DNA of 64,000 nt from Gammaproteobacteria bacterium. GTDB lineage: Bacteria > Pseudomonadota > Gammaproteobacteria > Pseudomonadales > UBA5518. Shown in pieces: positions 57,960 through 60,844 of this stretch (its first letter is position 1; each line of letters opens with the position of its first letter). The notes under the pieces were generated by a model. That model had not been told where the DNA came from, did not search any database, and saw only the letters and a program-made list of their open reading frames with translations. The translations under genes and the position numbers were made by a program. The DNA lies in contig JADIYI010000008.1 of assembly GCA_016705365.1 (NCBI GenBank), positions 767,700 through 831,699 of the forward strand. The letters run 5' to 3'.

Positions 57960-59981
57960 TCACGCGTCGCGCCAGCGCAGCCGCCACCATGGATTACGCG
58001 AACTTGGTGCCGCATCCTGGTGCGTGGCCGCGGGCGCCTCGTCAGACGCTGCGGTGGCTATCGCCGGAGGTGGCAGCTGTGCGGCAAACTCGGCGAGTGT
58101 CGGGTCATCGAAAATGCAGTCGAGCGATACCGGTACGCCAAAAACCTGCTCGACCTGCGACTGCATCTCCATCGCATCCAGGGAACTACCGCCAACCTGG
58201 AAGAAACGGCTGTCGGGGTCGAGTGACGCCTCCTTGAGGATTCGCGTCCAGATATCGGCCAGTGCCTGTTCCCGTCTGTCCATTCCCGTGAACTGCACAG
58301 TGCCGATGTCGCCGGCTGATCGGAGGGACCCGGCCTCCTCCAGGCGCAGATCGTGCAGCACCGCGGATTGCAGAAAATCGCGGTCGCTCAGCAATGCCGT
58401 GTTCACTTTGCCGCTGTCGGTAAGCGGCAAACCGCGAAGTGCCACGATACGTGAGGGCACCATATGGTCGGGCAGCGAGGCGCCGAGCAGCGTGCGCAGG
58501 TTCGGTATGGGCTGCTTGTTTGCCGGTACGTAGAATGCCAGAAGCTCCTTTTCGTTCATTGCGTTGTCGATTCCGACCACGCTCGCTTCCTCTATACCCT
58601 CGATCCGGCTCAGCGCCAACTCCACGGCCGGAAGTTCGACCCGAAATCCACGGATCTTCACCTGAAAGTCGCGGCGGCCCTGGTGAATCAGCGATCCATC
58701 GGGCAGCAGGCAACCGAGGTCGCCGGTCATGAAGCTGCGATTGCCGCTATCGTCCGAACCGCCGACAAATATGCCTTGGGACAGATCCTCGCGCTTCCAG
58801 TAACCGAGCGACAGGAACGGGCTGGAAACCACGATCTCACCCGATTCGCCCGGTGCGCAGGCTTTGCCTTGTTCATCGAGAATCGCCAACTCGACATCAG
58901 GCAGCGGTCGCCCGGGCGACAGGCTGCCGTCTTCGATCTGCGTGTCCCGATCATAGAATCGCGCACAGACGCTCATCGCTTCCGATGAGCCGTAACTGAT
59001 CAGCAGGCGGCGGGCGGACGGGAAACGTGTGCGAAAGTGCTGGAAGTCGAGACTGGTCGTGGCCTCTCCGACCAGCCGGATCAAACGTAGCGCGGCGAAG
59101 TTCTCCTTTCCGGACAGGGTTCCGGCAAAACGGCGGAACAAGGTCACGTACAGGGTGAATACGGTGACGTGTCCCTGTTCGAGGCTATCCCGAAGTCCGG
59201 GAAAACCGCGCTTCGTGACATCGATGGTAAACACCGCGGCGCCGGCCAGGAGTGGGACGAAGATACTGGTGACCGTGCCGAAAACCGGGGGTGCAGAACA
59301 GCAGCTGATACAGTCCGTTGCGCTGATCTGCATCAGTTCGGCTTGTGAGCGGCAATAGCGCAACAGGTTGCGCTGGTTCTGGTACACGCCCTTGGGCACG
59401 CCGGTGGAGCCGCTGGTAAACACCAGGTAGGCAAACGAATCGGGCGTGACTCCCGGTCCTGGATTGGTGTCCGCGAGCGAATCGTCGAGCTCGTCGATAT
59501 TGAGGATCGTGCAACTACCGCCGCTCAACTCCTCCGCCAGATGCAGATTTTCCGTGTCCGTTAGCAGTACATCGGGCTCGGCCACCGTGAGTACCTTGCG
59601 GTTCGACTCGAGCGGAAAATCCGGCGCGAGCGACGCATAGAGTCGTCCCGCCTTGAGTGCGCCGACAAGCGCGGAAATATATGCGGGAGAAACGCTGATC
59701 AGGGTGGCGACCGGACGGTGCGCATTGGCGGAAGCGCGCGCCAGCGCGTGCGCAATGCGATTTGCCCGCCGGTTCAGCACGCGGTAGCTGATACAGTCGT
59801 CCAGGGTTCTTATCGCGGGTCGATCCGGGAAGGCCTCGGCGATTGCCTCGAAACATTGTGCAACGGATTGCTCGCCCGGGGTGGTCTCGGGCAACAGCTG
59901 CAATGCCTCGGAGGCCAGGCCGGGCAGAAGCTCCTCGCGCAGCGAATCCGCGATTTTCAATTGCTGACTCATGAGTTCCAT
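57960..59981 (-). CDS. Stand-alone adenylation-thiolation (A-T) didomain protein
   Basis: A3 LVFTSGSTGVPKG, A5-like ISYGSSEA, A8 GRRDFQVKIRGFRVEL, A10 TDSGKVN and T FFQVGGSSLDAM. There are two possible ATGs, at 59981 and 59972. The latter forms an ATGA overlap with the upstream HemB-like stop. Confidence 0.88.
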   Translation of the reverse strand: MELMSQQLKIADSLREELLPGLASEALQLLPETTPGEQSVAQCFEAIAEAFPDRPAIRTLDDCISYRVLNRRANRIAHALARASANAHRPVATLISVSPAYISALVGALKAGRLYASLAPDFPLESNRKVLTVAEPDVLLTDTENLHLAEELSGGSCTILNIDELDDSLADTNPGPGVTPDSFAYLVFTSGSTGVPKGVYQNQRNLLRYCRSQAELMQISATDCISCCSAPPVFGTVTSIFVPLLAGAAVFTIDVTKRGFPGLRDSLEQGHVTVFTLYVTLFRRFAGTLSGKENFAALRLIRLVGEATTSLDFQHFRTRFPSARRLLISYGSSEAMSVCARFYDRDTQIEDGSLSPGRPLPDVELAILDEQGKACAPGESGEIVVSSPFLSLGYWKREDLSQGIFVGGSDDSGNRSFMTGDLGCLLPDGSLIHQGRRDFQVKIRGFRVELPAVELALSRIEGIEEASVVGIDNAMNEKELLAFYVPANKQPIPNLRTLLGASLPDHMVPSRIVALRGLPLTDSGKVNTALLSDRDFLQSAVLHDLRLEEAGSLRSAGDIGTVQFTGMDRREQALADIWTRILKEASLDPDSRFFQVGGSSLDAMEMQSQVEQVFGVPVSLDCIFDDPTLAEFAAQLPPPAIATAASDEAPAATHQDAAPSSRNPWWRLRWRDA

Positions 59982-60844
59982 CGCAGGAAATGATCGGGTG
60001 CATAGCCGATCACATAATCGGCACCGCAGCGACGAAATCCGGAATGGATTTCATCGAAGCAATCGTTTTCATCGACCATCCCGGCTTTGGCGGCCTGTTT
60101 GATCATCATGTACTCGCCACTCACGTGGTAAACAGACAGCGGCAGCGTGGTCATCTGCCGCGCCCTGAACACGATGTCGAGATAGATCATCGCAGGCTTC
60201 ACCATGACGATCGATGCACCCTGTGATTCATCAGCCGCAATCTGGTTCAGGGCTTCGGAAGGATCGGAATAGTCCGACTGGTACGCTTTGCGCTGGGCTT
60301 TCAGGGGGGACTGGATGGTACTGCGGTAAGGGCCATACAGCGCGGAAGAAAACTTCGAGCTGTACGCATGGATCCTGGTCCCGGTGTGACCGGCGCCATC
60401 CAGGGCGGATCTCAGTACGCGCACCTGCTCGTGCAACGAGAGGCAGGGCGCCACATAATCCGCGCCGGCCGCTGCAAAAGCCAAGGCGAGCTTCGCGGCG
60501 TGTGCATAGCTTTTCTCATAATTGACTTCGCCATTCTCGATGATGGTGCTGTGCCCGTCGCTGGCGTAGGGCGAGAGCCCGACGTCGGCATGAAGCGTCA
60601 GATCCTGGCGGAAGTTCTTCTTTGCCGTCTCGATGAAATTCCGGATCAAACCGCGCTCGCAGGCGAAATCGATTGATTTGTTATCGGTTGATCCAAAAAC
60701 AAGGAAGTTGCTTATGCCTTTATCGAGGTGCGTTGCCAGGTACTCGATCCCCGACTCGAGGCAATGATAATTGACGGCTGCCAAAGGCGACGGCTGCTTG
60801 TCGGCAATGCCTTCCTTGAGAAACACACAAGCAATGTAATCCAT
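59969..60844 (-). CDS. Divergent porphobilinogen synthase (HemB / delta-aminolevulinate dehydratase) family paralogue, N-terminally short
   Basis: ALAD blocks are retained: ADYVAP, AYSSKFSSALYGPYR (Lys), YQ.D, IVMVKPAMIYLDIV (Schiff-base Lys), YHVSGEYMM, R.GAD.VI.Y. The cysteine-rich Zn site and the SDMMDGR block are not conserved (ADVGLSPYASDGHS; APCLSLHEQV). The ATG at 60844 is preferred over the TTG at 60880. Confidence 0.85.
   Translation of the reverse strand: MDYIACVFLKEGIADKQPSPLAAVNYHCLESGIEYLATHLDKGISNFLVFGSTDNKSIDFACERGLIRNFIETAKKNFRQDLTLHADVGLSPYASDGHSTIIENGEVNYEKSYAHAAKLALAFAAAGADYVAPCLSLHEQVRVLRSALDGAGHTGTRIHAYSSKFSSALYGPYRSTIQSPLKAQRKAYQSDYSDPSEALNQIAADESQGASIVMVKPAMIYLDIVFRARQMTTLPLSVYHVSGEYMMIKQAAKAGMVDENDCFDEIHSGFRRCGADYVIGYAPDHFLRWNS

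Follow-up and report, generated by a model that had tools for sequence, protein, structure and literature searches.

Background

The locus described here raises the question of why a gene that resembles hemB, the gene for porphobilinogen synthase (PBGS, ALAD), should be embedded in an operon of the nonribosomal peptide synthetase (NRPS) type. The gene lies on the minus strand at 59969..60844 of a 64,000-nucleotide stretch of gammaproteobacterial DNA (positions 767,700 to 831,699 of contig JADIYI010000008.1, assembly GCA_016705365.1), which is called the window throughout. PBGS is treated as a one-function family, in which the metal sites and the N-terminal arm are textbook cases of phylogenetic variation and of morpheein allostery. 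A preliminary description of the locus took the ALAD-like protein for a repurposed enzyme acting on a different amino-ketone substrate.

Our analysis confirmed that the gene is real, under selection and codes for a protein of the ALAD fold. Judged from its sequence, it belongs to a distinct, rare and monophyletic ALAD subfamily, whose member in the window departs from HemB in four defining features, namely the equivalog cut-off, the metal triad, the arm and the Ser165/MDG block. A non-housekeeping role of the protein is well supported.

Reading frame, selection and fold

The open reading frame (ORF) starts with an ATG at 60844, ends with a TGA at 59971-59969 and codes for 291 amino acids, so that the coordinates given in the preliminary description were correct; the plus-strand reading of the same interval was discarded, as its translation consists of stops only. 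An alternative TTG start at 60847, with a GAGG 7 nt upstream, gives the 292-residue version in which NCBI calls a near-identical protein (P0001), annotated there as 'hypothetical protein'. An in-frame stop lies 14 codons 5' of the ATG, which shows that the short N-terminus (MDYIACVFLKE, aa 1-11) is real and not a start-codon artefact. The near-identical gene on the public contig JADJGY010000019.1 (locus L013 in our numbering, gene at 10001-10879) differs from that of the window by a dS of 0.015 and in a single amino acid, R270 against H, so that the window represents a closely related strain or assembly. When the gene was compared with relatives of 82% and 75% identity, the ratio of nonsynonymous to synonymous substitution rates (dN/dS) was ~0.10, which points to purifying selection and rules out a pseudogene or relic.

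The protein matches the Pfam ALAD family PF00490 with 252 bits (gathering cut-off 24.6, E=9e-75), residues 2-289 covering positions 26-317 of the 317 in the profile. It stays, however, below the cut-offs of the curated NCBIfam models, scoring 250.4 bits against the 297 required for the HemB equivalog NF006762 and 212.2 against 507 for NF009923. AlphaFold2, given 75 sequences of the subfamily, produced a model with a pLDDT of 96 and a pTM of 0.93. When this model was searched with Foldseek, the top matches in the PDB were all PBGS (TM-score 0.93-0.95, root-mean-square deviation (rmsd) ~1.8 A, 30-34% identity), and no solved structure of a subfamily member was among the matches. The best solved relative is E. 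coli HemB (E=3e-48).

Catalytic core, metal site and N-terminal arm

For the comparison of residues, E. coli HemB was aligned with the window protein and its homologues; residue numbers follow E. coli HemB unless a position is said to be that of the window protein. D118, K195, K247, R205, R216, Q220, Y270, S273 and Y312 are all kept, of which R205, R216 and Q220 form the carboxylate lid of the A side in HemB and Y270, S273 and Y312 belong to the P side. Neither the two Schiff-base lysines nor the residues that bind the carboxylates vary in the subfamily or in canonical ALADs, except that R205, R216 and Q220 have been lost in one sub-branch, which occurs as the second copy in a Parcubacteria locus. 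In the window protein the A-side lysine (K195) is K164, encoded at 60353..60355 within YSSKFSSALYGPYR (aa 161-174), and the P-side lysine (K247) is K216, encoded at 60197..60199 within IVMVKPA (aa 212-218). RKAYQSD (aa 185-191), YHVSGEY (aa 239-245) and IGYAP, which contains Y281, are present as well, so that both lysine contexts and the other ALAD motifs quoted in the preliminary description were found again in the translation and the alignment. In human ALAD the residues touching ALA (5-aminolevulinate) or porphobilinogen are Tyr196, Lys199, Tyr205, Phe208, Arg209, Arg221, Lys252 and Tyr276 (PMC9631992). Counterparts of all eight are present in the window protein, the only exchange being a conservative one of Phe208 to Tyr. 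As far as the alignments go, neither the residues of the core chemistry nor those of the two carboxylate sites have been affected.

The losses that had been pointed out before are also genuine. Relative to E. coli HemB the protein lacks the ~28 residues of the N-terminal arm, and strand beta-1 is preceded by only 2 residues, where full-length canonical sequences have ~18-48. The former metal loop of the active site, DVGLSPYASDGHS (aa 87-99, 60548..60586), has no cysteine-rich zinc site, since Cys120, Cys122 and Cys130 are replaced by G89, S91 and S99 of the window protein. Practically every one of the 109 subfamily sequences has this G/S/S triad, whereas nearly all of the ~100 canonical representatives have either C-C-C or A-D-D, with a few CDC and other variants; two outliers with S/S/S and G/S/A triads were set aside from the canonical comparison. 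The canonical block S(D/A)MMDG(R/Q) is replaced by CLSLHEQ (aa 134-140, 60425..60445), in which LHE stands for MDG and C134 takes the place of Ser165, a position that is 100% Cys in the subfamily and 100% Ser in the canonical set.

A column-by-column contrast of the 109 subfamily with 102 canonical sequences yielded twelve positions which are conserved within each group yet differ between them. In the numbering of the window protein, with the canonical residue in brackets, these are C6 (Pro34), A116 (Leu147), C134 (Ser165), S136 and L137 (Met-Met), S166 (Ala), Y173 (Phe204), Q201 (Glu232), Q208 (Glu239), H267 (Leu), C273 (Ala) and G280 (Ser/Thr). Three cysteines and one histidine are therefore among the near-invariant substitutions specific for the subfamily. 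In the structures of the E. coli and P. aeruginosa enzymes, Glu232 and Glu239 are ligands of the allosteric Mg at the interface of arm and barrel; the loss of the two glutamates would then go with the loss of the arm.

In canonical PBGS the arm sets the assembly into octamer or hexamer, lid closure relies on octamer-specific contacts of arm and barrel, and the catalytic zinc is required for binding of the Km-determining substrate (PMC7729013), the zinc acting as a Lewis acid for the A-side ALA (PMC7725820). From these roles it would follow that the altered part of the window protein is the handling of the C5 end of the A-side substrate together with the regulatory apparatus.

A rare and separate subfamily

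The 120 best matches among 5.8 billion proteins all bear the signature of the window protein, that is the G/S/S triad (save for two exceptions, each at a single position), a Cys at position 165 in nearly every case and, in most of them, few residues before strand beta-1. In a library clustered at 50% identity, 4095 clusters of the ALAD family match and ~6 of these belong to the subfamily; the bit scores run from 355 to 240 within the subfamily, then drop to 204, and the canonical bulk lies below 190. A neighbour-joining tree, calculated with no bootstrap, places the subfamily in a single clade with the proteins P0122, P0126 and P0128 as sisters and the canonical ALADs on the opposite side.

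When 185,579 species genomes were scanned with a sequence pattern, ~35 subfamily loci emerged, which is a lower bound. Carriers are Parcubacteria, Saccharibacteria and Buchananbacteria of the candidate phyla radiation (CPR), Pacearchaeota and Woesearchaeota of the DPANN archaea, Mycobacterium and other actinomycetes, Shewanella surugensis DSM 17177, a metagenome-assembled genome of Mesorhizobium and many Synechococcus and Cyanobium strains including the complete genome of WH 8017. The picocyanobacteria and mycobacteria among them must possess a canonical hemB as well. Several subfamily members are annotated as 'hypothetical' at NCBI and as porphobilinogen synthase at JGI. For genome mining, the combination of ADVGLSPY, APCLSL and a missing arm separates the subfamily from true HemB, a distinction that current annotation frequently fails to draw.

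In the tree, the CPR/DPANN clade encloses the window protein together with its four relatives from Gammaproteobacteria (75-91% identity); subfamily proteins from Gammaproteobacteria, CPR bacteria and DPANN archaea share 60-75% identity. The GC content of the gene is 55.4% compared with 63.7% for the window; it falls to 53-57% across 59800-61000, and the adjoining gene of the adenylation and carrier protein is intermediate with 61.5%. The low GC content and the nesting in the CPR/DPANN clade suggest that the gene was acquired horizontally, perhaps from a donor of lower GC content. In plasmid and phage collections we found only canonical hemB genes of at most 39% identity, and carriage of the subfamily by mobile elements was not seen. 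PADLOC, consulted with regard to an anti-phage role, returned no match for the ALAD-like protein; for the partner proteins described below it gave a single weak one, of an LCM-like protein to PDC-S15 (E=2e-4).

Genomic contexts of the subfamily

Genes of haem biosynthesis are absent from the annotated neighbourhoods of the subfamily (~15 contigs), and no hem genes were found in the Pfam-scanned parts of the window, which lie beyond its first ~26 kb. The ORFs around 36 subfamily loci were clustered and annotated with Pfam, and three recurrent arrangements became apparent.

The first, found in clade B of the subfamily, has a fixed order of the ALAD-like gene, a flavin adenine dinucleotide (FAD)-dependent monooxygenase gene (FAD_binding_3), an Amdase-like gene and an MmgE/PrpD-like gene. 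The monooxygenase and the Amdase-like gene are present in 19 of 19 loci and the PrpD-like gene in 18 of 19, accompanied by an upstream cytochrome P450 gene in 13 loci and by a major facilitator superfamily (MFS) transporter gene in 11. The hosts are actinobacteria, cyanobacteria, Shewanella and Mesorhizobium, so that this cassette runs across four phyla (loci L032-L050 and L067), the upstream P450 and the MFS gene being seen in picocyanobacteria. Examples are L043 8754-15418 of Synechococcus sp. WH 8017 and L035 4112-8234 of Shewanella surugensis DSM 17177.

The second arrangement is that of clade A in CPR and DPANN, in which the gene of an LCM/TIGR00027-like S-adenosylmethionine (SAM) methyltransferase adjoins the ALAD-like gene in 8 loci. 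In Parcubacteria (L001 8261-10933, also L002 and L003) two ALAD-like paralogues flank the methyltransferase gene, and one of those in L001, P0053, is without the A-side residues R205, R216 and Q220; the locus is surrounded by repeated pairs of genes for a periplasmic binding protein and a TrmB regulator. In Pacearchaeota (L007 8309-10894, on an 833-kb contig) the ALAD-like gene overlaps a topoisomerase I gene, and a gene of the tetrapyrrole-binding TspO/MBR family lies ~1.2 kb upstream, which, being confined to a single lineage (L007, L008), may be a coincidence.

The third arrangement is the gammaproteobacterial one, in which the ALAD-like gene is followed by an A-T gene, coding for an NRPS loading module of adenylation (A) and carrier protein (T), with an overlap of 4 nt in the window, L013, L098 and L099, the last two of which were found independently with the A-T protein as query. 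In L004, whose ALAD-like protein is 82% identical to that of the window, the A-T gene is also located downstream and is homologous over its full length but frameshifted; this broken copy (L004 10900-12800) is either an error of the long-read assembly or a decaying gene. On L014 a downstream ORF overlaps the ALAD-like gene, and only its first 31 codons lie on the contig. The link to the NRPS is stronger than could be seen in the preliminary description, the overlap being kept on four independent contigs. A-T orthologues form five clusters of 72-100% identity, after which the identity falls to 38%, so that the loader exists only alongside this ALAD clade.

The partners found in clades A and B (FAD monooxygenase, Amdase-like, PrpD-like, P450, MFS and LCM-like proteins) have no counterparts in the window, L013, L004 or L014, where the best tblastn match had an E value of ~0.2. 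For the same reason a PrpD-family gene 4 kb upstream on L013 was dropped as a candidate orthologue of the PrpD-like gene of clade B. The simplest reading would be that different sets of tailoring enzymes process one building block, which the ALAD-like enzyme makes from a common metabolite.

Coupling to the NRPS genes

In the window the A-T gene covers 57960..59981 on the minus strand (673 aa) and overlaps the stop of the ALAD-like gene with its start, the sequence ATGA at 59972-59969 being shared as previously described; an alternative ATG at 59981 would extend the overlap to 13 nt. The protein contains the Pfam domains AMP-binding (E=9e-58), AMP-binding_C (8e-09) and PP-binding (1e-13), and its carrier motif GGSSL has the serine of GGxS. 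Alignment to a GrsA-PheA reference gives the putative pocket code FGTTRVSVCK with an Arg at 299. In the same alignment Asp235 is missing, Phe or Gly occupying 235/236 in the motif VFGTVTS, which is kept in the A-T orthologues; the absence of Asp235 suggests that the substrate is not an alpha-amino acid, and Arg299 would suit an anionic substituent.

A convergent plus-strand gene (53717..57790) codes for an NRPS module of condensation, adenylation and carrier domains (C-A-T), with the motifs HHxxxD (condensation) and GGDSL (carrier), followed by a polytopic C-terminal domain of ~320 residues that matches Acyl_transf_3 with 20.8 bits, below the cut-off of 31 bits. The code of its adenylation domain, DPRHFGFQAK, resembles the alpha-aminoadipate code of Lys2, in keeping with a 310-bit match of the protein to the alpha-aminoadipate-reductase model TIGR03443. 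The same architecture also flanks the relative in L004, and a large convergent gene is present on L098. The C-A-T protein probably acts as partner of the A-T protein, joining the acid bound there to a second acid; an NRPS ending in a membrane domain is unusual and suggests offloading at or across the membrane.

Proposed function and alternative explanations

We propose that the protein is a functional member of the ALAD subfamily, without arm, without metal site and different from HemB, which would condense 4-oxo-acids to a porphobilinogen-like acid that is loaded by the NRPS. We give this proposal an even chance. The double Schiff-base chemistry of PBGS would be kept, K216 binding the P-side and K164 the A-side 4-oxo-acid (what the alignment gives is the presence of the lysines), with the P-side carboxylate held by S242 and Y281 and that of the A side by the lid residues R174, R185 and Q189 (all in the numbering of the window protein). 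The two molecules would be joined by an aldol and imine condensation of the Knorr type without active-site zinc or Asp triad, and without the control by octamer formation and allosteric Mg, for which the N-terminal arm is needed. Because all residues holding the carboxylates of both ALA molecules are kept, 4-oxo-acids of the ALA type most likely remain the substrates, the most parsimonious one being ALA itself, at least on the P side.

As for the product, we infer porphobilinogen or a close analogue which differs at the position derived from C5 of the A-side substrate. Such a product would be a carboxylic acid without alpha-amino group, which the translationally coupled A-T protein could adenylate and load, and which the C-A-T module with its membrane acyltransferase-like domain may condense with a second acid to a small exported product. 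Elsewhere the same building-block enzyme would be paired with a SAM methyltransferase (CPR/DPANN) or with FAD monooxygenase, Amdase-like and PrpD-like proteins (picocyanobacteria, actinobacteria, Shewanella). The partner families, i.e. LCM carboxyl-methyltransferase-like proteins, A domains, Amdase, PrpD and FAD monooxygenases of the aromatic type, act on carboxylates or aromatic rings, which would fit a pyrrole di-acid, if circumstantially. Of the repurposing put forward in the preliminary description, the non-housekeeping part stands, given the score below the HemB cut-off, the separate clade and the lack of haem contexts; the 'different amino-ketone substrate' is unsupported as stated, since the change is confined to the metal and A-side C5-substituent region and the carboxylate residues for both ALA molecules are kept.

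Several points weigh against our proposal. The three genomic contexts have no partner genes in common, and the adenylation code of the A-T protein depends on the GrsA reference sequence to which it was aligned. CPR and DPANN hosts probably do not make ALA, which may therefore not be the universal substrate. The loss of both the Zn-Cys3 site and the Asp triad could mean a different A-side substrate or even a different reaction, and the loss of the arm could block the closure of the lid, which in canonical PBGS needs the contacts of the octamer (PMC7729013).

Some of these points lead to the explanation that survives best beside our own, although we consider it unlikely: a different, non-pyrrole chemistry on the ALAD scaffold, in which one or both lysines act on 4-oxo-acids or other carbonyls, for example in an aldol or retro-aldol reaction, a decarboxylation or a cyclisation to a carbocycle or furan, and in which the invariant Cys134 (with C6, C273 and H267, all in window-protein numbering) could be catalytic or metal-binding. 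The twelve near-invariant subfamily-specific substitutions, with their three Cys and one His and the exchange of Ser165 to Cys, would suit such a change, as would the loss of both known metal or acid-base solutions. The sub-branch without R205, R216 and Q220 indicates that the A site is evolvable, some of the hosts (CPR/DPANN) are unlikely to have ALA, and the PrpD-like, Amdase-like and family III CoA-transferase partners are typical of polycarboxylate metabolism. What speaks against it is the strict conservation, in the main subfamily, of the two lysines and of the residues that bind either carboxylate, which is exactly what two molecules of the ALA type require. In addition, we know of no ALAD-family member with another reaction, nor did our literature search find one.

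It is also conceivable, but improbable, that the gene is a self-resistance copy, in which case the NRPS cluster would make a PBGS inhibitor, an analogue of ALA or levulinate like alaremycin, and the ALAD-like protein would be an insensitive PBGS sustaining haem synthesis. Resistance is classically signalled by an additional version of a housekeeping enzyme encoded within a biosynthetic cluster, and every residue required for binding two ALA molecules is kept. Natural PBGS inhibitors with clusters of their own do exist (PMC12006855). The loss of arm and metal site would, however, be expected to lower the efficiency of PBGS (PMC7729013). Moreover, the subfamily also occurs in two conserved contexts without NRPS, and the 4-nt coupling is to the loading module, whose orthologues occur only with this ALAD clade, which looks like substrate supply and not like resistance. 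The subfamily is also found in CPR and DPANN organisms, which are not known to synthesise haem and so would have no haem pathway to protect.

That the protein is an ordinary if odd-looking housekeeping HemB, and the sole porphobilinogen synthase of its genome, is very improbable: its match to PF00490 is strong, both catalytic lysines are present and the organism uses haem proteins (SCO1/SenC and NnrS genes in the window), but the protein falls below the curated HemB cut-off with a near-identical protein called 'hypothetical' at NCBI, its closest relatives belong to CPR/DPANN and to cyanobacteria and mycobacteria, the latter two of which also require a canonical HemB, its GC content of 55% against 64% and its nesting in the CPR/DPANN clade point to an acquired accessory gene, and it is coupled always to the NRPS loader and never to hem genes.

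If the condensation to a porphobilinogen-like acid is extended to the whole clade, one arrives at a neofunctionalised group of arm-less, metal-free ALADs making a free monopyrrole (or related) di-acid for small natural products, for which we see somewhat less than an even chance. Were this true, the product would serve as NRPS starter here, be methylated in CPR/DPANN and be oxidised and decarboxylated in picocyanobacteria, mycobacteria and Shewanella; it would stand for a new class of metabolites that derive from ALA without being tetrapyrroles, and the enzyme would be the first of the ALAD family dedicated to secondary metabolism. Functionally divergent ALAD paralogues, ALAD in CPR and the use of porphobilinogen in natural-product clusters were looked for in the literature and no description was found, the one related result being the alaremycin cluster. 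By keeping only the double Schiff-base core, the clade would show the minimal catalytic unit of the family, and it suggests that chemistry of the ALA type has been recruited outside tetrapyrrole synthesis. As the clade spans Gammaproteobacteria, CPR and DPANN and the cassette is found in abundant freshwater and marine picocyanobacteria, its product may be ecologically widespread. Cultured carriers are available with Shewanella surugensis DSM 17177, Synechococcus sp. WH 8017 and Cyanobium strains.

Other genes of the window

Upstream of the C-A-T gene and in the same direction, the genes of a short-chain dehydrogenase/reductase (SDR), a stand-alone acyl-CoA ligase and a resistance-nodulation-division (RND) pump, consisting of membrane-fusion protein and AcrB, occupy 46012..53499 of the plus strand (Pfam, NCBIfam) and, to judge from their adjacency, are possible members of the cluster. 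On the other side, an intergenic region of 478 bp (60845..61322) separates the ALAD-like/A-T operon from a divergent sulfotransferase gene and, by its position, is presumed to be the promoter region; no sigma-70-like site, terminator, riboswitch or Rfam family was detected around the operon. The sulfotransferase (61323..62486, plus strand; Sulfotransfer_3, E=2e-27) may be a tailoring enzyme and is absent from L004. It is followed by the gene of a ~470-aa protein (62314-63927, plus strand; L013 6921-8333), which has only a sub-threshold match to DUF1214 (E ~0.002). On L013, past the point where the window ends, an F420H2-quinone-reductase-like gene, a PrpD-family gene and a double family III CoA-transferase follow, and a family III CoA-transferase is also found near the relative in L004.

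Further away, an ATP synthase operon (26947-33294, plus strand) has the order beta, epsilon, small ORFs, a, b/delta-like, alpha and gamma, an arrangement characteristic of N-type (Na+) ATPase operons as opposed to the housekeeping F-type. An NnrS gene is located at 33304-34482, and the region 40807-43809 contains a gene of the fatty-acid-hydroxylase family on the plus strand followed by those of SCO1/SenC and of the selenium-binding protein SBP56 (methanethiol-oxidase family) on the minus strand. The genes of this region are unrelated to the ALAD-like gene but show a lifestyle that depends on copper and haem.

Comparison with known systems

Paralogues of ALA synthase have been recruited into the clusters of the C5N unit and of alaremycin. 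The alaremycin cluster recruits an ALA-synthase homologue and targets PBGS (PMC12006855). These clusters resemble the locus described here in that a paralogue of an early haem-pathway enzyme lies in a small cluster beside an adenylating or ligating enzyme; the recruited step, however, is that of ALA synthase there and would be that of ALAD here, a recruitment for which our literature search found no precedent.

Within the family, the intermediates P0122, P0126 and P0128, taken from the library of representatives, branch beside the subfamily and share with it a block of the type APC(L/M)S(L/V) or similar and D(I/V)G(L/F)S at the metal loop, but they score far lower (251 to 183 bits) and P0126 keeps an N-terminal arm of 38 residues.

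The HemB of P. aeruginosa (PDB 1b4k, 1gzg), which is Asp-rich and zinc-independent, likewise has no Cys triad and no catalytic zinc and agrees with the window protein in fold (TM-score 0.93-0.94), lysines and lid. Unlike the window protein it has the arm, its A-D-D triad is G-S-S here, and the column of the allosteric-Mg glutamate, which is 92% Glu in canonical sequences, is Gln.

E. coli HemB (PDB 1b4e, 1i8j) has the same TIM-barrel (TM-score 0.94, rmsd 1.8-1.9 A) at 37% identity and shares both Schiff-base lysines as well as D118, R205, R216, Q220, Y270, S273 and Y312. In contrast to it, the window protein lacks the ~28-residue arm, has Cys120/122/130 replaced by G/S/S, Ser165 by Cys, MDG by LHE and Glu232 and Glu239 by Gln, and lies below the cut-off of the HemB equivalog.

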